Positions 13,101 through 62,633 of a stretch of DNA of 62,745 nucleotides are shown one piece after another. This stretch comes from Bacteroidales bacterium (GTDB lineage: Bacteria > Bacteroidota > Bacteroidia > Bacteroidales > JAUNSR01), in NCBI GenBank assembly GCA_036655755.1, contig JAVVPN010000005.1, positions 1-62,745 of the forward strand, in the 5' to 3' direction. The first letter of the stretch is position 1. Every line of letters starts with the position of its first letter. Made by a program: the position numbers and the translations under genes. The notes beneath the pieces are model-generated. The model was not told where the DNA came from, searched no databases, and saw only the letters and a program-made list of their open reading frames with translations.

Positions 13101-13849
13101 ATGCTGCCGTAAACAGCCTGTTCGGAGGATTTGACGCGGTAGAGGTGTCGCGACCGGAAATTCCGCCATACGAACCATGGGGCGACCTGGAACGATTGAA
13201 TAAAGAAAAAGAGTATGTAGGGATCTATCTGTCGGCCCATCCGCTGGATGAATTCAAAATCGCACTCGATTACGGATGCAATACGCAGCTCGCTGAATTT
13301 ACCAACCCCGATTCGCTGAAAGGGCGCGAAATCATCATGGGAGGAATCGTTACGAATTTCCGCGAAGGGATGACCCGCAAAGGAAATCCGTACGGATGCA
13401 TTAAATTGGAGGATTATTCGGGTTCGTATGAGATCATGCTGTTCGGTAACGACTTCCCGGAATTCCGAAAATTCGGATACAACGGTATGTATCTGCTGAT
13501 TAGCGGCAAATTCCAGCCGAAACGATTCAATCCGGAAGATTATGAATTTAAGATCGGCCAGATTGAGTTATTGCCTGATGTAAAAGACCGCCTTGTCGAA
13601 TCGCTTACAATCGGCGTACCGCTACAGGAGATTCACAATGTAATGGTTGATACGCTACAGTCGATGATCGTATCGGAAAAGGGAGGAAAAACCAAACTCT
13701 ATTTTGAGATTTACGACCCCGAGACCCAACATATCGTGAAGCTTTATTCGCGTTCGCACAACGTAGTTATAACCAAAGAGTTGATAAACTTCTTGCGAGA
13801 GAATGAGCATCTTTATTATAAAATTAATGACCGCGAGCCGAAGGAATAA
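10181..13849 (+). CDS. dnaE: DNA polymerase III alpha subunit
   Basis: FVHLHVHSQYSILDG PHP domain, GPGRGSAAGS, PDIDIDF, KMDFLGLKTL, YAFNKSHA. No intein seen. ATG at 10181. Confidence 0.98.
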   Translation: MQPFVHLHVHSQYSILDGQAAIGALVDKAMKNGMKAIAVTDHGNMFGIKEFFNYTNKKNGAVNGEIKGLKKQLKALEAAEGDHSAAIAELQAQIREKELMRFKPIFGCEVYVARRGRQSKAGKEDQSGHHLILLAKNEKGYRNLIKLVSMGWTEGYYYRPRVDKEILEKYAEGLIVSSACLGGEIPKLIQAGNLEKAEESIRWFKNIWGDDYYLELQRHKTNDPNANREVYPIQHQVNEELVKLAAKTGVKLICTNDVHFVNEEHAEAHDRLICLSTGKDLNDPNRMRYSKQEWMKTQEEMNELFADLPEALANTAEIADKVEFYTIDHGPILPNFPLPDGFTDDNDYLRHITYVGAKERWGELTDEQKERVDFELATIKNMGFPGYFLIVQDFIAAARKMGVSVGPGRGSAAGSAVAYCLKITDIDPIKYDLLFERFLNPDRISLPDIDIDFDDDGRGEVLRWVTEKYGYEKVAHIITYGTMATKSSIKDVARVQKLPLSESDRLTKLIPDRLPEVNGKSLKINLKNCIENVPELMDAVNSPNPIIADTMKYAQMLEGNVRNTGVHACGIIIGRDDITDWVPVSTADDKETGEKMLVTQYEGSVIEDTGLIKMDFLGLKTLSIIKEAIENIRLSKGIVIDIDTIDIEDPTTYKLYSDGRTTGTFQFESAGMQKYLRELQPTTFEDLIAMNALYRPGPMDYIPQFIARKHGVEPIVYDIPVMEKYLKDTYGITVYQEQVMLLSRLLADFTRGESDALRKAMGKKLRDKLDQMKPQFIAGGQKNGHDPKVLEKIWGDWEKFASYAFNKSHATCYSWVAYQTAFLKANYPPEYMAAVLSRNLSNITDLVKYMDECKAMKIQVLGPDVNESNLKFTVNKNGDIRFGMAAIKGVGEGVVLSIIKEREENGPFTGIFNFIERVNLSAINKKALEALALGGAFDNFTELKREQYFTPNMRGEIFMETLVRYGQKFQIDKNAAVNSLFGGFDAVEVSRPEIPPYEPWGDLERLNKEKEYVGIYLSAHPLDEFKIALDYGCNTQLAEFTNPDSLKGREIIMGGIVTNFREGMTRKGNPYGCIKLEDYSGSYEIMLFGNDFPEFRKFGYNGMYLLISGKFQPKRFNPEDYEFKIGQIELLPDVKDRLVESLTIGVPLQEIHNVMVDTLQSMIVSEKGGKTKLYFEIYDPETQHIVKLYSRSHNVVITKELINFLRENEHLYYKINDREPKE

Positions 13850-13922
13850 GGTTTTTTCCTTATTTTTGAATCATTATTGAGACAATATCGTAATCAATTT
13901 TTGAATAAAACATTAGTATATC

Positions 13923-14240
13923 ATGGCTTTACAATTTAAAGACGAAAGCGTTAAAGAATTAATTGCCTCAGGCAAACCGGTAGTAATCGATTTTTGGGCA
14001 GAATGGTGTGGACCATGCCGCATGGTATCACCAATCATTGACGAACTATCAGCAGAATATGAAGGACGTGTAGCAATCGGAAAATATAATGTAGACGAAG
14101 AGAATGATCTGAGCGCAGAATATGGCATCCGCAACATCCCAACCATCCTTTTCTTTAAAGATGGCAAATTGGTAGACAAACAAGTTGGAGCTGCTCCGAA
14201 AGCTGCCATCCAGGCTAAGGTTGATGCTATCGCAGAATAA
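13923..14240 (+). CDS. trxA: Thioredoxin
   Basis: DFWAEWCGPC and IPTILFFKDG. Confidence 0.97.
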   Translation: MALQFKDESVKELIASGKPVVIDFWAEWCGPCRMVSPIIDELSAEYEGRVAIGKYNVDEENDLSAEYGIRNIPTILFFKDGKLVDKQVGAAPKAAIQAKVDAIAE

Positions 14241-14264
14241 TCAGACGACCTGATCACAAGCAAG

Positions 14265-14306
14265 GAGGCAGATGATTCATTTTTCAATCATCTGCCTCTT
14301 TTGTTT
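14265..14306 (+). terminator. Intrinsic terminator after trxA
   Basis: 13-bp stem GAGGCAGATGATT/AATCATCTGCCTC followed by TTTTGTTT. Confidence 0.8.
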
Positions 14307-14347
14307 AAAATAGTAACAAAGAAATTTTTAAATCCCACGTTTATTTC

Positions 14348-14355
14348 TACTTTTG
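14348..14355 (+). promoter_or_regulatory. -7 promoter element for the zap-rny operon
   Basis: TACTTTTG just upstream of ORF 14369. Confidence 0.55.
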
Positions 14356-14368
14356 TAAAGATTTTGGT

Positions 14369-14668
14369 ATGAAAATGGCAGACGAACCTAAAAAGTTGCT
14401 GAACAACCTCGAAGCAAGAGTAAGGCAACTCATGTTTCTTTGCAGTACACTCGAAGAACAAAAACAAGATTTATTAGTTAAACTCGACGAGAAAGAAGCC
14501 CAGTTAATGAAGGCTCTCCAAGAGAAAGAAGAGTTAAATACCAAATATCAGAACCTCCGGACAGCCCAGACATTATCCGGCGAAACTCAGGATATGCGGG
14601 AGACAAAAGCGAGGTTTAACAAATTAGTGCGGGAAATCGATAAATGCATCGCATTATTAAACGAATAA
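14369..14668 (+). CDS. Coiled-coil protein (ZapB-like partner of ZapA)
   Basis: Heptad-rich 99-aa helix directly upstream of zapA, ending KLVREIDKCIALLN. Confidence 0.7.
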   Translation: MKMADEPKKLLNNLEARVRQLMFLCSTLEEQKQDLLVKLDEKEAQLMKALQEKEELNTKYQNLRTAQTLSGETQDMRETKARFNKLVREIDKCIALLNE

Positions 14669-14674
14669 GATGCA

Positions 14675-14971
14675 ATGAGCGATAAATTTACAATCAGAAT
14701 AAAAATAGCAGATTCTGCTCATCCCCTTACCATTGAACGTAAAGATGAAGAATTATACCGGAAAGCTGCTAAAATGGTGGATATGCGATTCGCCGATTAC
14801 AAAGAGAGATATAAGAATGTGGATCTGAATGATAATCAGTTCCTTTCATTCGTAGCTTTGGAATTCGCGGTTAAGTACCTGCGGCTCGATGACGACAGGA
14901 ATATTGATGCCTTGGGGAACAAAATCGGAGAAATTACTCACGAGATTGAGGAATTTTTAAAAAATAAGTAA
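14675..14971 (+). CDS. zapA: Cell division protein ZapA
   Basis: IRIKIADSAHPLTIERKDEELYRKAAKMVD...LSFVALEFA pattern, and position upstream of rny. Confidence 0.85.
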   Translation: MSDKFTIRIKIADSAHPLTIERKDEELYRKAAKMVDMRFADYKERYKNVDLNDNQFLSFVALEFAVKYLRLDDDRNIDALGNKIGEITHEIEEFLKNK

Positions 14972-48542: not shown

Positions 48543-48582
48543 ACGAATATAAATCTAAAATATCCTTACTTTTAGGGATATC

Positions 48583-48627
48583 ACGGAGTGCTTTTCCTAA
48601 TTTTTAGGGATAGCACTCCGTTTTTTT
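48583..48627 (+). terminator. Intrinsic terminator after GUS
   Basis: Stem ACGGAGTGCT/AGCACTCCGT with inner TCCTAA/TTAGGG pairing, followed by a T-run. Confidence 0.8.
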
Positions 48628-48633
48628 ATCCTG

Positions 48634-48654
48634 TAATTTTGCATCATTCTAAAT
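48634..48654 (+). promoter_or_regulatory. -7 promoter element overlapped by a putative Fur box
   Basis: TAATTTTG at 48634-48641. ATTTTGCATCATTCTAAAT at 48636-48654 matches 16/19 positions of ATTTAGAATTATTCTAAAT, a Bacteroidota Fur consensus recalled from memory and to be verified. Confidence 0.55.
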
Positions 48655-48687
48655 AACATACAATTAGAGGTGATCAGGATAGTAAAG

Positions 48688-51627
48688 ATGAAGAAACAGA
48701 TATGTTTGGTTTTAATGTGTAGCATAACCGGTCTTTTGTGGGGCTCTGAACTTGTAATACGAGGCAGAGTTACCGAAAAAGACCGGATTACGGCTATTGA
48801 AACAGCTGTAGTTGCGATTGGCGATCTGCAACTTTGGGCCGTTACCAACGAACGGGGCGAATTTGTTATAAAAAATGTACCGGCGGGAACCCATAAATGT
48901 GTGGTTTCATGCTTAGGGTACGTCAAAAAAGAGCATCCCATATCAATTTCTTGCTGCGACACTACCATCCAAATCATACTCGAACAAGATAATCTTGCCC
49001 TCAACGAAGTGGTGATTACGGCAAAAGAGAACAAACACGTTACCGCCACTGCTTATGTAATTGACAAAACCGCGCTCGAACATCAGCAACTCACCAATGT
49101 AAACGCGCTATCCTCTCTTCTGCCGGGAGGAAAAACCCAAACTAACAACCTCGCCACATCCGACAAACGATTCGAAATTCGTGCCGCGACCGGAGAACTG
49201 GGCAACCCCTCTTTTATGACGGCGGTCGAAGTGGACGGCATCCGTCTTTCCAACAATGCGTCGTTTTCAGAAACGGCCGGAGCGGATACACGCAATATTC
49301 CGGGCTCGAATATCGAATCGGTCGAAGTGATTACCGGTATTCCGTCGGCAGAGTATGGCGATGTTTCGGGCGGGGTGGTGAAAATCAAAACTCAAAAAGG
49401 GAAAGCACCGTTTAAAGCGATTTTGTCGGCATCCCCGCGCAACCACATGCTTGCCGTAAGTCAGGGAATCGACTTAAAGGCACAACGGGGTACGCTAAAC
49501 CTGAGTCTCGAACGGAGTGGCTCATTCGCCGAGCTCGCGTCGCCCCATACCAACTATACGCGAAATGCATTCAACGCCATCTATTCGAACACTTTTGGGA
49601 AAGGGGGTACTACCCCGCTCTCCTTTTCGGCGATCTTCGCAGGAAACATCGGAGGGTACGATTCGGAAGCTGATCCGGACGCATTTGCCGAAACGTATAC
49701 CAAGCAAAAAGATCATACCCTGCGCGGCGCGCTCGAAATGAACTGGCTGATCAATAAGCCGTTCATTACCGGCATGGAGTTAAAGACATCGTTGCGCTAT
49801 GCAAATAAGCAACAAAAAATAAATACCAATAAATCGAGTTCAACCTCCACCGCTGTTTTTCACGGCACAGAGGAGGGCTATTTCGTAGCCACCGATTATG
49901 ATACAGACCCGGATGCCGCCGTATCGCTCATTCCGGCCGGCTACTGGTATCAGCTTCAATATACAGACGACCGGCCGCTCGACTATAACGCATCGCTCAA
50001 ACTGTATCACAATGTAAATGTAGGCCGGATAAGCAACAAACTGAAAATGGGTGTTGAGTTTTCGATGCTGGGTAATCTGGGCGACGGCGTTTATTACGAC
50101 CAGCCTCAATATACCCCGACATGGCGCCCGTATGCGTATTCCGATGTGCCGTTTATGAAAAACGCGGCGCTTTATGCCGAAGACGAGATGCGTTTTCCGA
50201 TAGGCACTACCCGGATGCAGTTGTCGGCAGGCATACGTTATGACCGTACGCAGATCGATGGCAGTGAATATGGAGCGGTAAGTGCGTTTTCGCCACGCCT
50301 CAGCATGATCTATACATTGATCGACCGGCCGCAGGCACGTTTTCTACGCAACCTCCGGCTGCGTGGCGGGTTTGGCGATGCGGTCAAACTACCCTCTTTC
50401 GCCATCTTATATTCCGAGCCGAATTATAAACAACAACTCACGTTTGCACCGGGTGCGCTGTCCGACGGTACTGCTTATTACGCATACTATATTCAGCCCA
50501 CCCGCCAACTCTTCAACCCGAATCTCAAGTGGCAGTCCACCCGCCAGAGCGAAATCGGAGTCGATCTGCAGTTAGGCCAGGTAAAACTTGCCCTGAACGC
50601 CTACCGCAACAAAAGTTCGAACGGTTATATGACAGCGTCCTATTACACCCCGTTCGCGTATAAGTTTACCGATCAACGGGCCATTGAAGGAAGCTCCGTT
50701 CCGGTGAACGACCGGGTATTTTCAGTAAACCGGCAAACCGGTGTGGTTACATTATCCGACCGTACAGGTCAGCATGCTGCCGTCGAACTGCCTTATGCAG
50801 AGCGAACCACCTTTAAAAGTGAAAGCTACGCTACCAACAACACCCCGGTATTGCGTCAGGGGATAGAGTGGATTGCCGATTTCGGTAAGATTCCGGCCCT
50901 GTTTACCAATTTCCGGTTAGACGGAAGCTATTATCACTATAAAGGAGTAAACGAAACGGTGATAGCGGGTTTGCCCACCTCGAGCCAGACCATGGCAAAC
51001 GGACTGCCTTATAAATATGTAGGATATTACGCCGGATCGACCACCGCTTCGAATGGCTCTGAAACCAGACGACTCAACACCAACCTGACGTTGACCACGC
51101 ATATTCCGCGCCTACGCTTACTGTTTTCGTTGCGGATTGAATCGACTCTTTATCAGGCTTCGCGCTATCTGTCGGAATACAACGGAAAAAGCCTCGGCGT
51201 GGTGCTCAACGACCGGACCGAATATACGGGCACCTCTACGGATATCTACGGCGGCGATCGCTATGTGGCGGTATATCCGCTTTATTATACGAGTGCCGAC
51301 GATATGAATGTAAAGATTCCGTTTGAAGAAAAGTTCTTATGGGCTAAAGAGCACGACAAAGCCCTTTACAACGAATTGTCGAAACTGGTGGCCAAAACCA
51401 ATACGGCTTATTTTTTCAATGAGAACCGCATATCGCCCTATTTCTCGGCCAATCTGAGCATTACGAAAGAGATCGGGAAACGCTTTTCTCTCTCATTCTA
51501 CGCCAATAACTTTCTGAACAGCCTCAGCAAAGTAACCAGCAGTTGGAATGACAGCGAAACCACCCTTTACAACAGCGGACGCATCCCCTCATTCGATTAT
51601 GGGATGACGCTGCGGGTAAAACTTTAA
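48688..51627 (+). CDS. TonB-dependent receptor (non-SusC) with carboxypeptidase-regulatory-like N-terminal domain
   Basis: LNEVVITA TonB box; plug NIESVEVITGIPSAEYGDVSGGVVKIKT; FNPNLKW; C-terminal YGMTLRVKL. ATG at 48688. Confidence 0.92.
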   Translation: MKKQICLVLMCSITGLLWGSELVIRGRVTEKDRITAIETAVVAIGDLQLWAVTNERGEFVIKNVPAGTHKCVVSCLGYVKKEHPISISCCDTTIQIILEQDNLALNEVVITAKENKHVTATAYVIDKTALEHQQLTNVNALSSLLPGGKTQTNNLATSDKRFEIRAATGELGNPSFMTAVEVDGIRLSNNASFSETAGADTRNIPGSNIESVEVITGIPSAEYGDVSGGVVKIKTQKGKAPFKAILSASPRNHMLAVSQGIDLKAQRGTLNLSLERSGSFAELASPHTNYTRNAFNAIYSNTFGKGGTTPLSFSAIFAGNIGGYDSEADPDAFAETYTKQKDHTLRGALEMNWLINKPFITGMELKTSLRYANKQQKINTNKSSSTSTAVFHGTEEGYFVATDYDTDPDAAVSLIPAGYWYQLQYTDDRPLDYNASLKLYHNVNVGRISNKLKMGVEFSMLGNLGDGVYYDQPQYTPTWRPYAYSDVPFMKNAALYAEDEMRFPIGTTRMQLSAGIRYDRTQIDGSEYGAVSAFSPRLSMIYTLIDRPQARFLRNLRLRGGFGDAVKLPSFAILYSEPNYKQQLTFAPGALSDGTAYYAYYIQPTRQLFNPNLKWQSTRQSEIGVDLQLGQVKLALNAYRNKSSNGYMTASYYTPFAYKFTDQRAIEGSSVPVNDRVFSVNRQTGVVTLSDRTGQHAAVELPYAERTTFKSESYATNNTPVLRQGIEWIADFGKIPALFTNFRLDGSYYHYKGVNETVIAGLPTSSQTMANGLPYKYVGYYAGSTTASNGSETRRLNTNLTLTTHIPRLRLLFSLRIESTLYQASRYLSEYNGKSLGVVLNDRTEYTGTSTDIYGGDRYVAVYPLYYTSADDMNVKIPFEEKFLWAKEHDKALYNELSKLVAKTNTAYFFNENRISPYFSANLSITKEIGKRFSLSFYANNFLNSLSKVTSSWNDSETTLYNSGRIPSFDYGMTLRVKL

Positions 51628-51657
51628 TCAGAATTATAAACGCTAACAATAAACATT

Positions 51658-52980
51658 ATGAAGAAAATTTATGCTTTATTTCTCACCCTGTCATTGATCG
51701 CATCCGCTTGTACGAAGGATGAAGTGATACCCGAATACGAAACGGTAGAGATCGCAGTACAACTGCTTTATCCCGCCACATCCGGCTTCGAAGCGACAGA
51801 GGGAGTCGCAGTGAGCGCTCGTGCTACATCGGGTGTATCGTACAAATCTGCTACCGACGCGACCGGAAAGGCCACATTCAGCCTGCCGGTGGGTATTTAC
51901 GAAGTAACGGCTACCGACAAACGGTCGGCTAGCGGCAAAAGCGTGGTATTCAGCGGAGCAAAAAGCAATCAAGCGATTGCGGCAGCCAACAATACACCGA
52001 TTGAACTTACGATGATCGAAAGCGTGCGCAGCCAGATCGTTATCAAAGAGCTTTACAACGGAGGATGTCAGAAAGATGACGGCTCAGGCTCATATCATTT
52101 TGATAAATACGTGGTGCTTTACAACAATTCGGAAGAGGAGGCAGAATTGCAAAACCTTTGCCTGGCAATGGTTTTACCCTATAATTCTACGGTGGCAAAC
52201 GCTGATATTCAAAACGGGTCGCTGTTTTATGAAGCAGAAGGGTGGATTCCGGCCGGACTGGGTTATTTCTATTTCCCGAATCAAACGAAACTGAATCCGG
52301 GCGAACAGATTGTGGTGGCCTTCAATAATGCCAACGACAATACGCAAACCTACTCCAATTCGGTAGATTTGGGCAAACCGGAATATTATGTTACTTACGA
52401 ACCGGAAGTATTCAACAATACCAGCTATCACCCGGCACCATCGGCAAATATTCCGACTTCACATTACCTGCCCGGATTTAAATATGGCACCGGAAATGCC
52501 TGGGCATTCAGCAATACGTCGCCGGCATTCTTCCTGTTCGCTCCCGAAAACACCACTCCGTCAGATTTCGCGGCAGATGCAAGCAATATCTCACTATACA
52601 ACGGATCGGCGACACAGGTGCGCAAAAAAGTTCCGGTTGAATGGGTGATCGATGGTGTGGAAGTATTCAAACAAGGCGCATCAAACAATGTAAAACGTTT
52701 TACTCCGGCCGTAGATGCCGGTGCCGTGCAACTGAACGGAACTTTCGGCTACACCCTCTATCGTAACGTGGACAAAGACGCTACCGAAGCGCTTACCCAA
52801 AACACAGGCAAACTGGTATATAACTACTCATTGGGAACTACAAGCCAAAACGGTACTACCGATCCGTCGGGCATCGATGCGGAAGCATCCATTAAACTGG
52901 GTGCGCTCATCATCTATGCCGACACCAATAACTCGGGCAACGACTTCCACCAGAGAGGGCGGGCCTCTTTAAAGGACTAA
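51658..52980 (+). CDS. Surface lipoprotein, DUF4876-like
   Basis: Lipobox ASAC followed by acidic TKDE; VIKELYNGGC, KYVVLYNNS, VIDGVEV and C-terminal DTNNSGNDF. Confidence 0.75.
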   Translation: MKKIYALFLTLSLIASACTKDEVIPEYETVEIAVQLLYPATSGFEATEGVAVSARATSGVSYKSATDATGKATFSLPVGIYEVTATDKRSASGKSVVFSGAKSNQAIAAANNTPIELTMIESVRSQIVIKELYNGGCQKDDGSGSYHFDKYVVLYNNSEEEAELQNLCLAMVLPYNSTVANADIQNGSLFYEAEGWIPAGLGYFYFPNQTKLNPGEQIVVAFNNANDNTQTYSNSVDLGKPEYYVTYEPEVFNNTSYHPAPSANIPTSHYLPGFKYGTGNAWAFSNTSPAFFLFAPENTTPSDFAADASNISLYNGSATQVRKKVPVEWVIDGVEVFKQGASNNVKRFTPAVDAGAVQLNGTFGYTLYRNVDKDATEALTQNTGKLVYNYSLGTTSQNGTTDPSGIDAEASIKLGALIIYADTNNSGNDFHQRGRASLKD

Positions 52981-52983
52981 AGC

Positions 52984-54594
52984 ATGCATCAATCGCCTTT
53001 ATTAAAAAAAGGGACTCTTTCAGTAGCGTTCGCAATCATTTTTGCGAACGCTATCGCACAAGAAACCGTCCCCTTTTATTATGATTTTGACTATACGCCC
53101 GATTCTGTCGGATGGCAGCAAAGCGAAAACAAATCACAGCTTTTTCGCAGTCCGCTGCAACAAGCCGGCAGGGCGGGTATCTCTTATGGGTTTGCAAAAG
53201 GAACGCTGACCAATTTTAACGTGGCCGATAAGGAAACAGGAATCCGGGCCTATGGCGAATCTTATTTCAAACTGAGTCCACGTACCATGGTATACGGACT
53301 GGCCGCTTTCAGCTCTGACAAAGAGAGGGGAACAGCGGGTTCGGCTTTTCTAAGCGGACGCACGCACGCCTTCAACCTGGTTTTAATGGATCAGACCAAT
53401 AAGGGAGACCGGAAGACGGAAACCTATCAGATACAGGGTGCGGTAGGGCATCAATTGAATAATCGGCTGTCGGTCGGCGGTAAATTCGATTACCGGGGGA
53501 TAAACATGGCGCGTACCAAAGATCTGCGCCATACCAACCAAGGACTCGACTTGACCCTTTCGCCCTCCGTTTCGCTGCTATTATCCGATAAAATCCGTAC
53601 CGGAGTTCATTACAGCTACAACCGCTATATCGAAGGAATCAAATTCAACCTCTACGGCACTACCGACCGCCAATATTTCACATTGGTAGATTTCGGTGCC
53701 TTTTACGGGAAACAAGAACTTTTCGATACCAACGGTTATACCACCAAAGGGGAAAACACCCCCTATGTAGAGCAAATTCATAAGGCAGGGTGGCAACTGG
53801 AATACAAACCCACTCACCGCCTCTACCTGTTTAACGAGTTCGTATGGGGTAAAGGCGACGGATATTTCGGAAAACAGGCTTCGGCAGCCATCCAATACAC
53901 CCGGCATGAGGTAAATCAATGGAGCGACCGATTGGTAGCCTATTACCGCGGCAAACGGCTACTGCAACAGCTTGAATTACGGATTGGTTATCAACGCTAT
54001 CAAAACTACGAAAACTCGTGGCGTACCGAAACCTCCGGTTCGGGCAATAGCATCATTGAATATTACGGACAGAACAAGGTAGGTGAACGAGCGTACACGA
54101 ATCTGGCAGCCGACTATTCGATTGAATGGGGCAAACCGGAGGAAAACGGAAAATGGAGATTGTCGCTCGGAAGCGCCTTCGCGCAACGTGAGCTACAAGC
54201 CATTCTTTATCCTTATTACCGTACGCAAAACCTGCAGCTTTACCGTCATCGGCTCGGGGCGATTCATCAACGCGCTGTCGGGAAGATCCAATTGACACTT
54301 CACGGTGCGGTAGCTTTTGCATCGGGTAGCGGGACGCCTTATACGGATAAGGTATTCGTTACCCCCTCTACCGACGAAGGTACGCCGGCCAATGCCGATC
54401 ATTACCTGATGCAGGAATACAATTATCTGACTGCCCGCAAACTGCAACCGGAAGCGGGCTTTCGCATCATGATGCCGGTTAAGAAAATGAGTTATTACCT
54501 CAGCACGACCTATCATGCGGAAATTCCGACCGGAACCACATCCGTTGCAGGAAACCGCAATCACATACATTGCGCAATAGGCGTAAATTTTTAA
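52984..54594 (+). CDS. Outer-membrane beta-barrel protein, DUF6850-like
   Basis: Signal peptide, alternating amphipathic strands and C-terminal Phe (IGVNF); AVGGKFDY....ARTKDLRH.N. Confidence 0.7.
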   Translation: MHQSPLLKKGTLSVAFAIIFANAIAQETVPFYYDFDYTPDSVGWQQSENKSQLFRSPLQQAGRAGISYGFAKGTLTNFNVADKETGIRAYGESYFKLSPRTMVYGLAAFSSDKERGTAGSAFLSGRTHAFNLVLMDQTNKGDRKTETYQIQGAVGHQLNNRLSVGGKFDYRGINMARTKDLRHTNQGLDLTLSPSVSLLLSDKIRTGVHYSYNRYIEGIKFNLYGTTDRQYFTLVDFGAFYGKQELFDTNGYTTKGENTPYVEQIHKAGWQLEYKPTHRLYLFNEFVWGKGDGYFGKQASAAIQYTRHEVNQWSDRLVAYYRGKRLLQQLELRIGYQRYQNYENSWRTETSGSGNSIIEYYGQNKVGERAYTNLAADYSIEWGKPEENGKWRLSLGSAFAQRELQAILYPYYRTQNLQLYRHRLGAIHQRAVGKIQLTLHGAVAFASGSGTPYTDKVFVTPSTDEGTPANADHYLMQEYNYLTARKLQPEAGFRIMMPVKKMSYYLSTTYHAEIPTGTTSVAGNRNHIHCAIGVNF

Positions 54595-54616
54595 ACCAAT
54601 TAAAACAGACTTACAA

Positions 54617-55237
54617 ATGAAGGATTCATTATTAAAAAATAAATTGATCAACGCGACAGTTTCAGGCAGCATCGCCCTATTGCTTATTTTGGGAACAGCA
54701 TTCATCACATCGTGCCAGCCGAATAAAAAACCTGCAGCCGATACAGCCGCAATTATACCGGAGAATAATGCCCTCGAGGTTGATTCCGTACTGGCTCTGG
54801 CAGAGCAGTTGGTCGACAAACAAATCGAGCTCGAAGGAGTTTGCACGCATATCTGTAAACACGGCGGCCGCAAAATATTTTTGATGGGAAGCAACAACTC
54901 CCGCATTCTGCGCATCGAGGCCGCGAAAGGTGAGAAATTCGATCCGAACTGCGCGAACAGCATCGTTAAAGTGAAAGGTACGTTGAAAGAGGAGCGTATC
55001 GACGAAACCTATTTGCAAAGATGGGAAGCCTCTTTGGCCGATAAAACGGCAGAATCGCACGGAGAGAGCGCTGCCGGATGCAGCACCGAAAAAAGAGCCC
55101 GCGGCGAATCGGCCAATACACCCCAAAGACGCATCGAGCAATTTCGCCAGCGCATTGCCCAACAGAAAGAAAAAACCGGCAAAGAATATCTTTCATTCTA
55201 TCACATAGAAGCTGCCAGCTATACCATCCAAAAGTAA
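54617..55237 (+). CDS. Lipoprotein with OB-fold-like domain and Cys/His motif
   Basis: Lipobox ITSC; ELEGVCTHICKHGG; VKVKGTLKEERID. Confidence 0.7.
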   Translation: MKDSLLKNKLINATVSGSIALLLILGTAFITSCQPNKKPAADTAAIIPENNALEVDSVLALAEQLVDKQIELEGVCTHICKHGGRKIFLMGSNNSRILRIEAAKGEKFDPNCANSIVKVKGTLKEERIDETYLQRWEASLADKTAESHGESAAGCSTEKRARGESANTPQRRIEQFRQRIAQQKEKTGKEYLSFYHIEAASYTIQK

Positions 55238-55244
55238 TCTGTAA

Positions 55245-56129
55245 ATGGAAAATATCATCGAATGTAAAAACCTGACCCATTACTATGGGAACAGGAAAAT
55301 ATATGAAAACCTGAGCTTCTCGATTCCGAAAGGAAAAATCATGGGATTGCTCGGAAAAAACGGTACGGGTAAAACCACCTCGATCAATATTCTGAGTGGA
55401 TACCTGAAACCTCAGGCCGGCGAATGTTACATCTTCGGTGAGAATATCCAGGAGATGTCGCCCCTGCAGCGCCGTAAAATCGGCCTGCTCATTGAAGGGC
55501 ATGTGCAGTATGACTTTATGAATATTGAGCAGATAGAGCGTTTCTATTCGGCATTTTACCCGAACTGGAAAAGAGAAGCCTATTACGAACTGATGAGCCG
55601 TTTAAAAGTAGCGCCCAAACAGCGAATCTCAAGAATGTCATGCGGCCAGCGTTCGCAGGTAGCACTGGGGTTGATCCTGGCCCAGAATCCCGAATTATTA
55701 ATTCTGGACGATTTCTCGCTCGGGTTAGATCCGGGCTACCGCCGTTTGTTTGTCGATTATCTGAAAGAGTACGCATCGGCCGAAGACAAAACCATTTTCC
55801 TGACCTCGCATATCATTCAGGACATGGAGCGTCTGATCGACGATTGCATCATCATGGATTACGGCAAAATATTGATTCAGCAACCGATTAACGAGCTGTT
55901 GCAAACGTTCCGCCGAATAAGCTGCACCTTGCCCGAAGGATATCTTTTCGATAAAGAATCGTTCTTGATGAACCCTTCATTAATCGGCAACTCGTTCGAG
56001 GCGTTCACCTTCGAACCCGAACAGGTGGTGATCGATCATCTCCGCGAGTTACAGATTCCTTACAAAAATTTGCGCTATGAAGCGATGAATCTGGAAGATG
56101 CCTTTATCGGTTTAACAGGCAAATATTAA
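55245..56129 (+). CDS. ABC transporter ATP-binding protein (ABC-2/exporter type, degenerate motifs)
   Basis: Walker A GKNGTGKTT, signature MSCGQ, Walker B LILDD, H-loop TSH, C-terminal LEDAFIGL. Confidence 0.92.
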   Translation: MENIIECKNLTHYYGNRKIYENLSFSIPKGKIMGLLGKNGTGKTTSINILSGYLKPQAGECYIFGENIQEMSPLQRRKIGLLIEGHVQYDFMNIEQIERFYSAFYPNWKREAYYELMSRLKVAPKQRISRMSCGQRSQVALGLILAQNPELLILDDFSLGLDPGYRRLFVDYLKEYASAEDKTIFLTSHIIQDMERLIDDCIIMDYGKILIQQPINELLQTFRRISCTLPEGYLFDKESFLMNPSLIGNSFEAFTFEPEQVVIDHLRELQIPYKNLRYEAMNLEDAFIGLTGKY

Positions 56130-56151
56130 TCAATCCATTAAGTATCAGACA

Positions 56152-56823
56152 ATGATAAAAGCCATATTTTATAAAGAATGGATCAAGACAAGATGGGTAG
56201 TCGTTCTCAGCCTGTTACTCTTGTCGGGATTCACCACATTCATTTTATTAAACCTCAACCGCATGATCGACTATAAAGGGGCGGTTCATATCTGGGATGT
56301 GATGATACAGCGCGATGCGTTGTTTATCGAACTGATACGCTACATTCCTCTGCTGGCAGGCATCGCGCTTGCCGTATCCCAGTATGTGCCCGAAATGGTT
56401 CGAAAATGCCTCAAGCTAACGCTTCACCTCCCCTACGACGCCAACCGGATGATTTTTCTGATGCTCTCTTACGGGGTAAGCGTTTTGCTGCTGATCTTTT
56501 CGATCAACTACATCGCCCTTTACAGCGTGCTCAGCTCTTTGTTGGTAAAAGAATTGGTACGTCACATCCTGTTGAGCGGAGCCGTATGGTTTCTGGCCGG
56601 CATCTTCGGTTATTTATTAACGGCGTGGATTGTACTCGAACCCACCTGGAAGCGAAGAGTTGTCAATATGCTGATCAGCATCCTGCTATTAAAGGTACTT
56701 TTCTTTGAAGCGGCCGGCGAAGCGTACAACCGCTTTCTGCCCTTATTGGTACTTTATATTCTTTTAAGCGGATCGCTCGCGTTTCTTTCGGTTTACAGAT
56801 TTAAAGTGGGTAAGCAAGATTAA
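56152..56823 (+). CDS. About 6-TM membrane protein, ABC-2 permease-like
   Basis: IFYKEWIKTR N-terminal helix and multiple hydrophobic segments; follows the ATPase gene. Confidence 0.75.
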   Translation: MIKAIFYKEWIKTRWVVVLSLLLLSGFTTFILLNLNRMIDYKGAVHIWDVMIQRDALFIELIRYIPLLAGIALAVSQYVPEMVRKCLKLTLHLPYDANRMIFLMLSYGVSVLLLIFSINYIALYSVLSSLLVKELVRHILLSGAVWFLAGIFGYLLTAWIVLEPTWKRRVVNMLISILLLKVLFFEAAGEAYNRFLPLLVLYILLSGSLAFLSVYRFKVGKQD

Positions 56824-56861
56824 GCAACCGACATAGTGTAAAAAATAGAATATATATATAA

Positions 56862-57923
56862 ATGAAAAAATTCAGTACTCTCTTTTTAGGAGCCACCATT
56901 CTGTTTCTCCTGCTATGGCAAATACCATGGCTATACTCCTTTCTGGTACCTCAGAAAGAGAAAGCGCCATTTGTGTTATTCAGCCCGATATTAAACGACT
57001 TTACTTTTTCGAAAGGTGAAAGCAAAAAATATACCCATACCGATTCAAACGGAAATCAATTCTCTCAACAACAAATAGACAGCCTGCACCCGGTATTTTA
57101 TGCCCGTCAGTTGATGAGCGACAGCCGGTTTCCCGATTCGATAGGCAATGCGCCGGCCGATTACAAAAACATACAGCATGATGTTTTCTATTTTCGCCAC
57201 TCTCCGCGGGATATCAATCGCCCGGTTTTAGGTATCTGGCAGATGATGGAATCACTTTCGGGACGCGTTAAACTGGAAACACCCGAAGATGTATTCCGAA
57301 TCGACGAACAGGGAATCACTTTTATAGATATCGCCACCAATCAGATCGACGCGTCGAAAAGCGCCCGGTTCACGAAAGCGATGAAACAGCAGCAGTTTGT
57401 TTTTCCGGCCTCCTATGTGATAGGTAACCCGATTGTCAAAAAAGATTATGATGAAGGCTATCTGATGCTCGACAATGAGAAGAAGTTATTTCATGTAAAG
57501 CAAGTGAAAGGGCGGCCGTATGTAGAGAAAATAGATTTACCGGAGAATATCGTTCCGAAGCATCTGTTCATTACTGAATTTAAAAACCGTGGCATGCTCG
57601 GATTTCTGACCGATGAAAAGAACCATTTTTACGCAATCAGTGCCAAAACACATGCGTTGATTCGCATCGATATACCGCAGTTTGTGCCGGAAGAGAATGC
57701 GATAATGATTTATGGCATGGTGTATCAATGGACCATTAAGGTATCTTCGAAAGAAAAAGTATGTTATTATGCACTCGACGGAGAGACCTTATCGCTTATC
57801 AAGTCGTATGAAGTACCGGACGAACCCTCGCTAAGCAAGACGGTAGGGCAATACTTGTCGCGTATCGGTATCCGCTTTAGCAATCCGCTCGATAAGTTTA
57901 TCTATCCGCGATTGGGTGCGTAA
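56862..57923 (+). CDS. Membrane-anchored periplasmic protein, DUF4857-like
   Basis: N-terminal TM helix (LLLWQIPWLY); LHPVFYARQLMSDSRFPDSI; PRDIN; ESLSGRVKLETP.DVFRI. Confidence 0.7.
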   Translation: MKKFSTLFLGATILFLLLWQIPWLYSFLVPQKEKAPFVLFSPILNDFTFSKGESKKYTHTDSNGNQFSQQQIDSLHPVFYARQLMSDSRFPDSIGNAPADYKNIQHDVFYFRHSPRDINRPVLGIWQMMESLSGRVKLETPEDVFRIDEQGITFIDIATNQIDASKSARFTKAMKQQQFVFPASYVIGNPIVKKDYDEGYLMLDNEKKLFHVKQVKGRPYVEKIDLPENIVPKHLFITEFKNRGMLGFLTDEKNHFYAISAKTHALIRIDIPQFVPEENAIMIYGMVYQWTIKVSSKEKVCYYALDGETLSLIKSYEVPDEPSLSKTVGQYLSRIGIRFSNPLDKFIYPRLGA

Positions 57924-58149: not shown

Positions 58150-59037
58150 TTAATCGAGGAATCGCTTCGTAATACCGTCATACGCTTCGATACGACGGTC
58201 GCGTAGGAACGGCCACCAACGGCGCACGTTTTCAGAGCGCGTCATATCCACCTCTACCACGGTGTTTACCTCTTCGCTGTTACCCGCTTCAAACAGAATT
58301 TCACCCTGTGGCCCCGCTACGAAGCTATTGCCCCAGAAGGTAATGCCATTGGTTTGTTTTGACGGATCGGGCTCCCAACCGGTACGGTTCACCGAAATGA
58401 CAGGCAGTCCGTTTGCCACCGCGTGACCACGCTGCGAGATAACCCATGCGTTTTTCTGACGCGATTTTTCGTCGTCGGTATCCGAGCTTTCCCAACCGAT
58501 GGCGGTAGGATAAATCAGCATATCGGCTCCGCGAAGCGCCATCATACGGGCAGCTTCGGGATACCACTGATCCCAGCATACCAATACGCCCAGTTTACCG
58601 ATCGATGTTTGAATCGGTTCGAAACCAAGGTCGCCCGGTGTAAAATAAAACTTTTCATAATAGGCAGGATCGTCCGGAATGTGCATTTTGCGGTATTTTC
58701 CGGCCATCGATCCGTCTTTATCGAAAACAACGGCCGTATTGTGGTATAGCCCTGCCGCGCGACGCTCAAACAAAGAGGTAACCAATACAATGCCCAATTC
58801 TTTCGCTATCGACGAGTAAAACTCGGTTGAAGGGCCCGGAATCGGTTCGGCAAGGTCGAACAACTGCGTATCTTCGGTCTGACAAAAATAGGGTGTATTG
58901 TGCAGTTCCTGAAGCACTACCAATTCGGCCCCCTGCTTTGCACAATCATGAATATTATTGTAAAGTTTCTGAAGGTTCTCTTTCAGATTGTCGGTGCAAG
59001 TTTGCTGCACCAATCCAACTTTGATTGTTTTAGCCAT
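58150..59037 (-). CDS. aguB: N-carbamoylputrescine amidase (carbon-nitrogen hydrolase)
   Basis: Nitrilase triad in VLQEL, YRKMHIPDDP and VCWDQWYPE; YPTAIGW; adjacent to agmatine deiminase. Confidence 0.9.
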   Translation of the reverse strand: MAKTIKVGLVQQTCTDNLKENLQKLYNNIHDCAKQGAELVVLQELHNTPYFCQTEDTQLFDLAEPIPGPSTEFYSSIAKELGIVLVTSLFERRAAGLYHNTAVVFDKDGSMAGKYRKMHIPDDPAYYEKFYFTPGDLGFEPIQTSIGKLGVLVCWDQWYPEAARMMALRGADMLIYPTAIGWESSDTDDEKSRQKNAWVISQRGHAVANGLPVISVNRTGWEPDPSKQTNGITFWGNSFVAGPQGEILFEAGNSEEVNTVVEVDMTRSENVRRWWPFLRDRRIEAYDGITKRFLD

Positions 59038-59043
59038 TGTATC

Positions 59044-60072
59044 TTATTTTAAAACGTTTACAGGAAATTGCATGGTCACGCAATGAAGCGAACCGTGCTG
59101 TTTAATAAGCGCAGAACAGTCGATTCCTACGATTTCGTATCCGGGGAATGCGTCTTGCAACGCTTTGGCCGCCGCCTCATCGTTGGCAGGCTGATTATAG
59201 GTAGGATATAACACCGCCTTATCCATAATCAGGAAATTGGCATAGGTAGCCGGCAACCGCTCTCCGTCGAACCAAACGGCATCCGCCATCGGCAAGGCGA
59301 CAAGGCGATAAGGTTCGCCCTGCAAGGTGTGGAATGTTTTAAGCTGTTCTTCCATCTGGCGAAGCGCTTCGTAATGTTCGTCCGCGCTATCGGTACATTT
59401 TACATATGCGATGGTATGGTCGGGACAAAGGCGCGCCAACGTATCGATATGACTGTCGGTATCATCGCCCGCCAGATAACCATGGTCTACCCATAATACC
59501 TGTTTCAGCGCAAACGTCTGTTTCAGATACGCCTCGATTTGCTCTTTGCTCCATTCGCCGTTTCGGTTTTTAGAAAGCAAACATTCGGAAGTAGTGAGCA
59601 ACGTACCTTCGCCGTCCGATTCGATGCCTCCCCCTTCGAGTACGAAATTAAGGTGGTTTTCATAACCGGCTGCAAACATACCCGCTTCGGCCAGTTTACC
59701 GGTAATGAGATTATCGTGGTTGGCGGCGAACTTGAGTCCCCAGCCGTTAAACTTAAAATCGCATATTACCGGCTTTCCGTCGCGAATCATCGTGATGGCA
59801 CCATGATCGCGCGCCCAGGTATCGTTGGTATCGCATCGGAAGAAACGCACATGATCCATATTCACTACTTTTTCGATCTGAGCGCGTACCGCTTCGGGAT
59901 CGGGGGTAACGATAAGGAGTAATGTACGGGCCGCGATTTCGCGGGCAAGATCCAGATAACAGGCTTCCACTTCATCGAGCATGTAATCCCAATCTGTTTC
60001 AGCGTGAGGCCAGGTAAGCTGGATACCACTCTGAGCATACCATTCGGCAGGCAAAAAAGTATTATTTGTCAT
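59044..60072 (-). CDS. aguA: Agmatine deiminase family protein
   Basis: PAEW, DTWARDHG, FNGWG.K, LEGGGIESDG, DDTDSHID, GSLHCVTMQ. ATG at 60072. Confidence 0.92.
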   Translation of the reverse strand: MTNNTFLPAEWYAQSGIQLTWPHAETDWDYMLDEVEACYLDLAREIAARTLLLIVTPDPEAVRAQIEKVVNMDHVRFFRCDTNDTWARDHGAITMIRDGKPVICDFKFNGWGLKFAANHDNLITGKLAEAGMFAAGYENHLNFVLEGGGIESDGEGTLLTTSECLLSKNRNGEWSKEQIEAYLKQTFALKQVLWVDHGYLAGDDTDSHIDTLARLCPDHTIAYVKCTDSADEHYEALRQMEEQLKTFHTLQGEPYRLVALPMADAVWFDGERLPATYANFLIMDKAVLYPTYNQPANDEAAAKALQDAFPGYEIVGIDCSALIKQHGSLHCVTMQFPVNVLK

Positions 60073-60093
60073 TATATTCTGATTTTTCTGCCA

Positions 60094-60101
60094 CAAAGAT
60101 A
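60094..60101 (-). promoter_or_regulatory. -7 promoter element for aguAB
   Basis: TATCTTTG on the minus strand. Confidence 0.65.
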
Positions 60102-60155
60102 GCACAAAAGGCGGGGCCGTCAAAAATCACTACATATAGCGATTGCGACAACAAG

Positions 60156-60209: not shown

Positions 60210-62633
60210 ATGAAAAGATTTTTACTACCTACCTGTCTGTTGATTAACGCAGTAGGGTTTACCATGCACGCAGAGTCGGTGATTACGCCCGAAACGGAAA
60301 CACCAGCCGATTCATCGGTTTTAAAAAACATGTTGCTCGAAGAAGTAGTGATTGTATCCAATCCGAAGGCCAAATTGCGTACGTTCGAAATGCCGGCTTC
60401 CGTATCGGTTTTCAACGCGCAGCGTATCGAGCGCGAAAACATGCTTTCGATCAAAGACTTTTCGGCGGTAGCACCCAACTTCTTTATTCCGGATTACGGT
60501 TCGAAACTGACTACGGCGATTTATATCCGCGGTATCGGAACGCGTACCAACAACTCGGTGGTAGGGATGTATGTGGATAATGTGCCTTACATGGATAAAA
60601 GTATCTTCGATTTCGATTTTCTCGACATTGAGCGGCTCGAAATTCTGCGTGGTCCGCAAAGTACGCTTTATGGACGTAACACGATGGCGGGGCTGATCAA
60701 CATCTATACGAAATCGCCGTTCGATCATCAGTACACGAAAGCGTCGGTATCTTATGGCAACTATAATTCGTTTCGCGCCTACCTTTCACGCTACGGAAAA
60801 ATCAATGATAAACTGGCTTACTCAATGAGCGGACAATACCAGTCGAACGACGGGTATTTTAAAAACATCTATACGGGCAAAAAGGCCGACGATTCAAAAT
60901 CGGCCGACGGGCGTTTTCAGCTTTACTGGCGCCCGAACGAGCGTATGAAGGTGAACCTGACTACCAATTATGAATACAGCACCCAGAACGGATATCCGTA
61001 CGGGTTGTTGAATGAGGAAACGGGCGTCGTAGAATCGGTAAACTACAATGATCCGGGCTCATACCGCCGTAATCTGTCGGCTACCAGCTTATTCGTTGAG
61101 AACCAATTCGACGGGTTTACAATGACCAACTCTACCGGTTATCAGTTTTTCGACGACCACATGGCGCTCGATCAGGATTTTACCGACAAATCTTATTTCA
61201 CGCTCAATCAAAAGCAACGTCAGCACTCATCGTCGCATGAAATCGTTTTCAAATCAAAAAAGGAAACCAATTTTAAATGGTTGGCCGGAGCGTTCGGATT
61301 CTACCAGCACCTCTTTACGGATGCGCCGGTAAATTTCAAAAAGCAAGGAATCGACGAGATGATCAACAACAATATCAAGATTCCGGCTATTCCGATACAA
61401 ATGGGCCCGACATCCGCAACCATGCTGATTACCGACTCGCTGATCAATAAAAACATGGTGATCGATGGCAAATTCACCACTCCGACATGGGGAGTGGCCG
61501 GGTATACCCAGCTTACTTATGACAACCTGTTTGTAAAAGGGCTTTCGGTTTCGGCCGGAGTGCGTCTGGATTATGAAAAGGCGAAAATCGATTACGATTC
61601 GTACGCTACCGCCTATGCCAAAGGTGCGATCGACATGCAGGTTGGTCCGGTAGTGCGTCCGATCACCTCTTTTATCGACACACTGGCTATACAAATCAAG
61701 GGAAAACAAAAACTCGATAACCTGGAGGTGTTGCCACGCTTCGATATTCGTTATACTCCGAATGACAAGTGCATGGCATATGCTTCGATTGCAAAAGGAT
61801 ACCGCGCGGGAGGATTCAACTTTCAGATGTTTTCGGACGCGATCCGCGACCAATTGAAAAGCCGCATGATCGGTGCCTTTATCGCGCAGGCAGATAAACA
61901 AGGCATGGGTGATCGCTTACCAGATAACATCCGCGAAATGGCGGTATTGCCGGAGTTTAATGAGCGAGCAGCGGTGGTTTACAAACCGGAACACAGCTGG
62001 AACTATGAAGTGGGAGCGCGTGCTGAAGTATTGAGTAAAACATTGTTTGTCGATCTGTCGGCATTCTATATCGATGTACGCAATCAGCAGGTATCCACTT
62101 TTTCGGAAGACGGCTTAGGACGCATCACGAAGAACTCAGGTAAATCACGTAGCTTCGGTGCGGAGCTGGGTATCCGTTATTTCCCATTGCCACAACTTGC
62201 GTTCACAGCAAACTATGGCTATACGAATGCTAAATTCATTGAAAACAGTGAATATAAAAAGATAAACGGCAAACTCACGCTGATTGATTATAAGGATAAA
62301 TACGTTCCGTTCGCGCCCGAACATACGCTTTCGGTAGCCGGTAACTATTTGCTGACACTTAACCGCTCATGGATCGACAACATGAACTTTAACGCACAAT
62401 ACGCTGGCGGAGGTCGCATTTACTGGACGGAAGACAACTCGCAGTATCAGAACTTCTATGGTACGTTGAGTGCCAAAGTTACGGCCCGCAAAGGGATTGT
62501 AGAGGTGGGATTATGGGGTAAGAACCTTACGAATGCCAACTACAAAGCGTTCTATTTCGAGTCTTTAGGCCGTAAGCTTGCCCAGAAAGGGATGCCCCTT
62601 ACATTCGGCGGCGAGGTGACTGTAAGATTCTGA
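60210..62633 (+). CDS. TonB-dependent receptor (non-SusC; vitamin or metal-chelate type)
   Basis: LEEVVIVS TonB box; plug IYIRGIG..VGMYVDNVP..IERLEILRGPQSTLYGRN; C-terminal FGGEVTVRF. Confidence 0.93.
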   Translation: MKRFLLPTCLLINAVGFTMHAESVITPETETPADSSVLKNMLLEEVVIVSNPKAKLRTFEMPASVSVFNAQRIERENMLSIKDFSAVAPNFFIPDYGSKLTTAIYIRGIGTRTNNSVVGMYVDNVPYMDKSIFDFDFLDIERLEILRGPQSTLYGRNTMAGLINIYTKSPFDHQYTKASVSYGNYNSFRAYLSRYGKINDKLAYSMSGQYQSNDGYFKNIYTGKKADDSKSADGRFQLYWRPNERMKVNLTTNYEYSTQNGYPYGLLNEETGVVESVNYNDPGSYRRNLSATSLFVENQFDGFTMTNSTGYQFFDDHMALDQDFTDKSYFTLNQKQRQHSSSHEIVFKSKKETNFKWLAGAFGFYQHLFTDAPVNFKKQGIDEMINNNIKIPAIPIQMGPTSATMLITDSLINKNMVIDGKFTTPTWGVAGYTQLTYDNLFVKGLSVSAGVRLDYEKAKIDYDSYATAYAKGAIDMQVGPVVRPITSFIDTLAIQIKGKQKLDNLEVLPRFDIRYTPNDKCMAYASIAKGYRAGGFNFQMFSDAIRDQLKSRMIGAFIAQADKQGMGDRLPDNIREMAVLPEFNERAAVVYKPEHSWNYEVGARAEVLSKTLFVDLSAFYIDVRNQQVSTFSEDGLGRITKNSGKSRSFGAELGIRYFPLPQLAFTANYGYTNAKFIENSEYKKINGKLTLIDYKDKYVPFAPEHTLSVAGNYLLTLNRSWIDNMNFNAQYAGGGRIYWTEDNSQYQNFYGTLSAKVTARKGIVEVGLWGKNLTNANYKAFYFESLGRKLAQKGMPLTFGGEVTVRF

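Follow-up and report, generated by a model that had tools for sequence, protein, structure and literature searches.

We analysed a 62,745-nucleotide stretch of a Bacteroidales genome (assembly GCA_036655755.1, contig JAVVPN010000005.1, positions 1 to 62,745; hereafter the window) with respect to a group of cell-envelope genes at 48670-57923. Sequence comparison confirmed that this segment is a real seven-gene operon of a cluster type that is widespread in gut Bacteroidota, preceded by a promoter, a hairpin region and two copies of an 18-bp element. The features are as follows.

48562..48579, + strand: first copy of the 18-bp element, ATCCTTACTTTTAGGGAT, scoring 18.3 bits in a genome-wide position weight matrix (PWM) scan and making hairpin 1 of the RNA fold
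48583..48628, + strand: strong hairpin followed by a T-run, the likely terminator of the upstream glycoside hydrolase family 2 (GH2) gene, enclosing the second copy of the element
48594..48611, + strand: second copy of the 18-bp element, TTCCTAATTTTTAGGGAT, ending exactly 22 nt before the -7 box
48634..48641, + strand: Bacteroides-type -7 promoter box, TAATTTTG, identified from its sequence and aligning with the TAnnTTTG boxes of homologous operons
48670..51627, + strand: TonB-dependent transporter (TBDT), 985 aa, with Pfam domains CarbopepD_reg_2, Plug and TonB_dep_Rec_b-barrel
51658..52980, + strand: DUF4876 predicted surface lipoprotein, 440 aa, Pfam 79 bits, Lamin-tail-like beta-sandwich
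52984..54594, + strand: DUF6850 outer-membrane beta-barrel, 536 aa, Pfam 137 bits, bearing a signal peptide and ending in Phe
54617..55237, + strand: Cys/His lipoprotein (CysLipo), 206 aa, oligonucleotide/oligosaccharide-binding (OB) fold plus helical hairpin, no Pfam family
55245..56129, + strand: ABC ATPase, 294 aa, Pfam ABC_tran, of the ABCA/DrrA/NodI/GldA class
56152..56823, + strand: permease with six transmembrane (TM) helices by hydropathy and an N-terminal amphipathic helix, 223 aa, no Pfam family
56862..57923, + strand: DUF4857, TM-anchored periplasmic protein, 353 aa, Pfam 316 bits

An original prediction, made from the letters of the window without database searches, had described seven co-oriented genes separated by 3-38 nt. 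All seven ORFs (open reading frames) do lie on the + strand, with successive gaps of 30, 3, 22, 7, 22 and 38 nt, and Pfam matched each of the families proposed for them (TBDT, DUF4876, DUF6850, ABC_tran and DUF4857); the true start of the TBDT is likely to be an in-frame ATG at 48688. The prediction had also placed the promoter after a terminator and begun the system at 48634, which is the first base of the -7 box. Immediately upstream of this box we found two hairpins, the second followed by a run of seven T residues, and because the region 48545-48635 folds at -33.3 kcal/mol (z = -6.6 against shuffled sequences) and leads into that T-run, the double hairpin fits a terminator of the preceding GH2 gene. 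Within the operon, terminator-like matches were at chance level (16 found, 14.9 expected for the scanned region).

To place the operon among its relatives, 91 related loci were annotated with small hidden Markov models. The order TBDT-DUF4876-DUF6850-CysLipo-PepSY_TM_like_2-ABC-permease-DUF4857 was complete in 58 of them, and most of the remainder either showed the same order cut at a contig end or had the transporter genes placed on the opposite side or strand. ABC-permease-DUF4857 was the most constant core: the ABC and DUF4857 genes were neighbours in nearly all 91 loci, and in all except two a permease was detected separately between them. Conservation of the gene neighbourhood, which the original prediction had put forward as a check, was thus evident across many genera, and TBDT-DUF4876-DUF6850 stood beside ABC-permease-DUF4857 in distant members of the phylum as well. 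A profile search with DUF4857 found relatives in 231 species genomes, and an even sample of the phylum contained it in 19/401 genomes and 13/180 genera; the CysLipo profile matched 958 cluster representatives in a search of representative proteins. On gene content and order, we class the window as a variant member of the cluster type represented by BT3625-BT3633 of B. thetaiotaomicron, with which it shares a co-oriented TBDT, DUF4876 and DUF6850 in that order, a CysLipo carrying the CTHxCxH motif, and a contiguous ABC ATPase (with the DD[FY]S sequence), six-TM permease and DUF4857.

The original prediction overlooked an eighth gene of the canonical operon. This gene lies between CysLipo and the ABC ATPase and encodes a protein of ~190 aa with 2-3 predicted TM helices and conserved His residues, which scores as PepSY_TM_like_2 (PF16357) and PepSY_TM. 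It is absent from the window, where the lipoprotein gene stops at 55237 and the ATPase gene starts at 55245, with just 7 nt in between. Two close relatives from independent samples, L096 and L097 (DUF4857 92% and 71% identical, respectively), share the layout, which is therefore a lineage trait and not an assembly error; the gene is also missing from loci L067 and L076, apparently through independent loss. Contig C17 of the same genome carries a stand-alone pair consisting of a CysLipo paralogue (50% identical) and a PepSY_TM_like_2 gene (L083:9556-10744, - strand), such that CysLipo pairs with PepSY_TM_like_2 both within operons and, in this genome, on its own. Behind the C17 pair come an ORF of 149 aa and two genes for histidine kinases. 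In one database protein (P0187) the N-terminal portion of a C17-type lipoprotein is joined to HisKA and HATPase domains, which could reflect use of the lipoprotein domain as a sensor, or a chimeric assembly.

Gene fusions were found among the relatives. L084 has permease and DUF4857 in a single frame (657 aa, 12939-14912; identified by BLAST and Pfam), with equally long DUF4857 frames in several other genomes of the same distant family, and a single 585-aa protein (P0182) joins DUF4857 to a CysLipo domain. Fusions and fixed adjacency alike speak for joint action of CysLipo, DUF4857, permease and ATPase, and the system would therefore divide into two modules, the outer-membrane set and the inner-membrane set.

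In the outer-membrane set, the TBDT is not of the SusC class (TIGR04056, 70 bits against a cut-off of 368), and a PDB sequence search with it returned no relatives at E <= 0.001. The best PDB relative of the DUF4876 protein was 4q1z (E = 9e-9). The window DUF4876 has the residues TKDE directly after the lipobox Cys, and its family carries a mean of 2.5 acidic residues at positions +2 to +6, matching the lipoprotein export signal, whereas 72 CysLipo homologues have none after the lipobox Cys. Because the acidic export signal is present in the former family and lacking in the latter, these signals place DUF4876 on the cell surface and CysLipo facing the periplasm. DUF4876 is further predicted to be the lid of the TBDT: AlphaFold-Multimer models the B. 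thetaiotaomicron proteins BT3633 and BT3632, which are adjacent in 59 genera, as a transporter-lid pair (bioRxiv 10.1101/2023.03.17.533168), and in the model the lid leaves an opening of ~20 A (bioRxiv 10.1101/2023.03.17.533168). The DUF6850 barrel accompanies TBDT and DUF4876 in related loci.

Alignment of CysLipo revealed the invariant residues C76-T-H78-x-C80-x-H82, H148 and C155 and a nearly invariant C112, a cluster that is a candidate metal or redox centre. An AlphaFold2 (AF2) model of the protein shows an OB fold plus a helical hairpin with a pLDDT (predicted local distance difference test) of 82, and Foldseek comparison of this model returned generic OB-fold matches only. An assignment to a known metallochaperone was accordingly rejected, DUF3299/PA4066 being matched weakly (template modelling (TM)-score 0.30-0.39).

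The inner-membrane set is built around an ATPase whose best PDB matches are the nucleotide-binding domains of ABCA3 and ABCA1 and whose NCBIfam matches to PmtA, DrrA, GldA and NodI (114-149 bits) are each below the equivalog cut-off. Its Walker B motif reads LILDDF, with Asp at the position of the catalytic Glu, and its signature MSCGQ (window 55635-55712). Since 91 of 92 family members have both the Asp-for-Glu replacement (DD[FY]S) and an MS[CNH]GQ signature, the alignment indicates family traits and not decay; the ATPase is probably slow. The permease forms a family of its own: weak ABC2_membrane_2/5 matches appeared in 4/26 homologues (best E = 0.007), hhalign gave a probability of 0.06% for a relationship with GldF, and the permease profile had no match in the PDB. 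By alignment and hydropathy, conserved charged residues are absent from its TM helices. The suggestion that the ABC module is of exporter type was borne out for the ATPase; sequence did not place the permease in the ABC-2 group. DUF4857 comprises a conserved N-terminal TM anchor, with the invariant residues W19, P22, Y25 and F27, and a periplasmic alpha/beta and beta-rich domain; conservation across the protein includes one invariant His and no Cys. Its AF2 model (pLDDT 82; predicted TM-score (pTM) 0.76) did not support a NosD-like protein or a clear beta-propeller, candidates ruled out by Foldseek TM-scores of <= 0.33.

The homologous promoters have in common an 18-bp imperfect palindrome of approximate consensus WTACCnnnWWWWnRGnGAT. 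The window carries it twice, at 48562 and at 48594, the copies being 32 nt apart. Exactly 22 nt of variable sequence separate the element from the -7 box in 17 distinct promoters of homologous operons, which come from Bacteroides, Phocaeicola, Alistipes and further metagenome-assembled genomes (MAGs), and we regard it as a candidate operator for a regulator. A scan for the composite arrangement (element, 22-nt spacer and -7-like box) identified two further promoters in this genome. One (C3:68536-68584) precedes a 373-aa PepSY_TM gene and has tandem copies of the element 31 nt apart; the other (C15:18642-18659) precedes an operon that encodes a small His-rich protein together with a TonB receptor of 772 aa. 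Tandem copies spaced by 31-32 nt are thus present at two of the three promoters, and none of the lower-scoring composites in this genome adjoins a gene. Coherent targets were gained solely with the composite. A Fur box at the -7 box was considered and rejected, as the sequence downstream of TAnnTTTG is unconserved among the homologous promoters and the conserved element lies upstream instead. A binder of the DtxR family, suggested by TAGGT/ACCTA-like half-sites, was also rejected, there being no DtxR-family gene above the cut-off in this genome. The genome has two Fur-family genes.

A connection to iron comes from relatives of the operon. In B. thetaiotaomicron, BT3625-BT3633 are 37-128-fold up under iron depletion (PMC10434189), and in P. 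gingivalis PG1019-22 are 21-214-fold up under the same condition (PMC10434189), the response covering the whole cluster in the former species and the outer-membrane module only in the latter. PG1019 and PG1020 are also up in a hemH mutant grown without haem, where they were called an uncharacterised transport system (PMC13096392). Together with the occurrence of the promoter element in front of PepSY_TM and TonB-receptor genes, the iron-depletion induction of relatives (PMC10434189) lends indirect support to the metal role that had been proposed for the operon. The literature assigns the cluster neither a substrate nor a mechanism, and no mutant phenotype has been published. To that extent the label "uncharacterised" in the original prediction is apt, but the cluster is a known locus of the iron stimulon and includes a predicted TBDT/DUF4876 lid pair. 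The cluster is already flagged in the literature as iron-induced and is of a recurring kind, of which the window is a variant.

We lean slightly towards reading the operon as a two-module envelope system that acquires iron, or a compound that carries it (a ferric chelate or haem, for instance), and is switched on when the metal is scarce. In such a system DUF4876 would capture cargo at the surface and act as the lid of the TBDT, which would import it, while the DUF6850 barrel would work with this pair at the outer membrane. CysLipo would then take over the metal or cargo in the periplasm. In most relatives it would act with the small PepSY_TM_like_2 protein, a member of the ferric-reductase superfamily, and the two would make a plausible station for reductive release or hand-off; in this genome the PepSY_TM_like_2 protein would have to come from a gene on another contig, acting in trans. 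The ABC ATPase, the six-TM permease and the anchored DUF4857 would form one complex that spends slow ATP turnover on the periplasmic side, either handing on metal or cargo or expelling a spent carrier. With an exporter-class ATPase, no polar pathway in the permease helices and a tethered periplasmic domain, this complex looks suited to periplasmic work and not to ion transport, and it more likely processes or removes cargo in the periplasm than performs classical import. Within this reading we favour hand-off in the periplasm, ahead of export of a carrier and of true import; what the cargo is, which way it is transported and how each hand-off proceeds are matters of inference.

Several observations weigh against this reading. 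The iron link is that of one transcriptome study of relatives, with 24-72% identity per protein, and mutants of BT3632 and BT3633 had no clear phenotype in 519 fitness experiments (bioRxiv 10.1101/2023.03.17.533168). With no PepSY_TM gene of its own, the operon does not encode the reductive step, and the four Cys of CysLipo could make structural disulfides instead of a metal site. The permease was not recognisable as an ABC-2 member, the PDB profile search, Pfam and hhalign against GldF all being non-significant; DUF6850 had no PDB relative, profile search included, and the DUF4857 model gave only weak propeller-like matches to known structures in Foldseek. Definition of the regulon by a simple PWM scan also failed, with high-scoring copies of the element near unrelated genes (Rce1-like and DUF417).

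The original prediction had offered two mechanisms, removal of metal from a host protein and recycling of a carrier, and both are conjectural. The emptied siderophore pyoverdine is pumped back out by PvdRT-OpmQ, and the operon might serve a comparable cycle, in which the TBDT imports a loaded carrier (a xenosiderophore or a secreted binding protein or ligand), the metal is freed in the periplasm, and the ABC/permease/DUF4857 unit, possibly with DUF6850, exports the emptied carrier. An exporter-class ATPase, a second barrel encoded in the operon and an extra secreted or surface protein in many related operons would all suit such a cycle. We nevertheless think it unlikely, for DUF6850 stays with TBDT and DUF4876 even where the ABC module is on the other side, neither the operon nor the flank scans contained a periplasmic adaptor of the membrane fusion protein (MFP) type, and Asp at the position of the catalytic Glu argues against a high-throughput pump. 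The opposite direction of transport is a shade less probable still: DUF4857 and CysLipo would serve as a tethered binding protein, and the ATPase and permease would bring in Fe(II), haem or intact cargo as a new importer on an exporter-type scaffold. The inner-membrane module is nearly always beside a TBDT, even where the TBDT is of a different type (24-67% identity) or is divergent; some genomes encode permease and DUF4857 as one protein, an arrangement expected of a tethered receptor; and the inner-membrane iron step of Bacteroides was called unknown in the Xus paper (PMC13142918). Set against these points, the permease TM helices have no conserved charged or metal-ligand residues, DUF4857 offers a single invariant His and no Cys, and the ATPase belongs to a class not known from bacterial importers and has a weakened catalytic base.

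We give least credence to a system that does not handle metal at all, whether it takes up another scarce compound or remodels the envelope through lipoprotein or lipid handling, with the response of relatives to chelator being an indirect stress effect. No substrate has been assigned in the literature, the 519 B. thetaiotaomicron fitness assays gave no phenotype, and the large TBDT (985 aa) with its SusC-like N-terminal domain and a predicted lid that leaves a ~20 A opening would be compatible with other cargo. The induction by iron depletion is, however, very strong (tens- to hundreds-fold) in relatives from two genera, the cluster is linked to PepSY_TM-family genes, the Cys/His cluster is invariant, and the promoter element is common to the operon, a PepSY_TM gene and a second TonB-receptor operon.

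Iron is contested between gut and oral Bacteroidota, their host and pathogens, and the route of iron from periplasm to cell is open even for the characterised Xus system (PMC13142918). The cluster is among the most strongly iron-induced loci of B. thetaiotaomicron, occurs in hundreds of species and includes four families (DUF6850, the Cys/His OB-fold lipoprotein, the permease and DUF4857) for which neither a function nor a convincing relative, by structure or by sequence, is known. To this the window adds a natural PepSY-less variant, contact predictions based on fusions, an unusual ATPase site that is family-wide, and a conserved promoter element with a small regulon of metal-uptake type. The two-module architecture, the contacts predicted by fusions, the PepSY-less variant, the ATPase active site and the invariant Cys/His motif, as a target for mutation, offer testable handles, as does the promoter element for finding the regulator.

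The following features lie outside the operon.

58150-60123, - strand: agmatine deiminase and N-carbamoylputrescine amidase (putrescine pathway), pair convergent with the operon
60210-62633: second TonB-dependent receptor, siderophore-type (TIGR01783 145 bits, below cut-off), 2.3 kb downstream of the operon
C3:74823-75830, - strand: Fur-family gene beside a rubrerythrin gene, ~6 kb from the element-bearing PepSY_TM gene

Upstream, the operon is flanked by two GH2 genes and a GDSL esterase gene, and downstream by the convergent putrescine-pathway pair and then the siderophore-type receptor, in front of which the 18-bp element is not present. An N-carbamoylputrescine amidase gene also adjoins the operon in the close relative L096. 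The Fur-family and rubrerythrin genes on contig C3 look like a PerR-type pair, and the second Fur-family gene is on contig C35. Many related operons encode an extra secreted or surface protein, which the window does not have. In distant loci this is a BNR/YCF48-like propeller with a type IX secretion system (T9SS) sorting tail (L095:7588-9819, L093:5077-7323 and L094:6537-8621), and in the B. thetaiotaomicron locus it is a fimbrillin-like/Fib_succ_major lipoprotein (L011:5512-7137), probably BT3630, a protein that has been employed as a secretion carrier (PMC11554821).

The closest described counterpart of the operon is BT3625-BT3633, which has the same families in the same order; locus L011, from a B. 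thetaiotaomicron MAG, shows the matching nine-gene layout. Identities between L011 and the window are 38% for TBDT, 32% for DUF4876, 24% for DUF6850, 54% for CysLipo, 72% for the ABC ATPase, 55% for the permease and 47% for DUF4857, and B. thetaiotaomicron has two more genes, those for the fimbrillin-like/Fib_succ_major lipoprotein and for PepSY_TM_like_2 between CysLipo and ABC. PG1019-PG1022 of P. gingivalis and BT1937-BT1939 of B. thetaiotaomicron have, according to the annotations in the papers, the same outer-membrane module (TBDT plus DUF4876) and are induced by iron or haem limitation, but are described without an ABC/permease/DUF4857 module.

The original prediction had set the operon apart from SusCD, hmu and xus and had reported no SusD, periplasmic binding protein or FecCD-type permease; both statements agree with our scans for the defining parts. 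Pfam and NCBIfam detected no SusD domain in the DUF4876 gene adjoining the TBDT or elsewhere in the operon, Pfam found no HmuY domain in the operon, the TBDT matched no haem-receptor family of NCBIfam, the seven proteins had no Pfam match to DUF4374 or PepSY_TM, and neither the operon nor its flanks contained a domain of a periplasmic binding protein or a FecCD permease. The premise that TonB cargo must pass to a binding-protein ABC importer stems from Proteobacteria. It was not supported: the characterised Xus system of Bacteroides has no such importer either and relies on a PepSY reductase (PMC13142918), and the Xus paper calls the inner-membrane iron step of Bacteroides unknown (PMC13142918). 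XusABC resembles the cluster in having a TBDT, a surface lipoprotein lid, a PepSY-family inner-membrane protein, iron regulation and no binding-protein ABC importer (PMC13142918). It differs in that its lid is a DUF4374 beta-propeller where the window has DUF4876, in that XusC is a full-length PepSY_TM protein, and in that it has no second barrel, Cys/His lipoprotein or ABC/DUF4857 module.

In N2O reducers, NosDFY-NosL combines a metal-binding lipoprotein with an exporter-class ABC ATPase, a six-TM permease and a beta-rich periplasmic partner, and ATP powers the periplasmic hand-off of copper, not transport across the membrane. Compared by description, the likeness to the window is one of logic only, and no NosD, NosL or NosY Pfam domain was detected in the window proteins. 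DUF4857 has a TM anchor of its own and a different fold, the Walker B motif of the ATPase carries Asp, and the association is with a TonB importer and with iron starvation instead of nosZ. By this analogy the ABC complex would resemble NosDFY/NosL, CcmAB/CcmE or LolCDE more closely than it does a binding-protein importer. A bolder proposal, which we hold to be possible but doubtful, is that the ABC ATPase, permease, DUF4857 and CysLipo constitute a new phylum-wide, ATP-driven periplasmic metal machine with NosDFY/NosL-like logic and unrelated sequence, which would supply the missing iron step between TonB import and the cytoplasm, with the Asp-for-Glu replacement as a slow switch and the 18-bp operator defining a new iron-type regulon.

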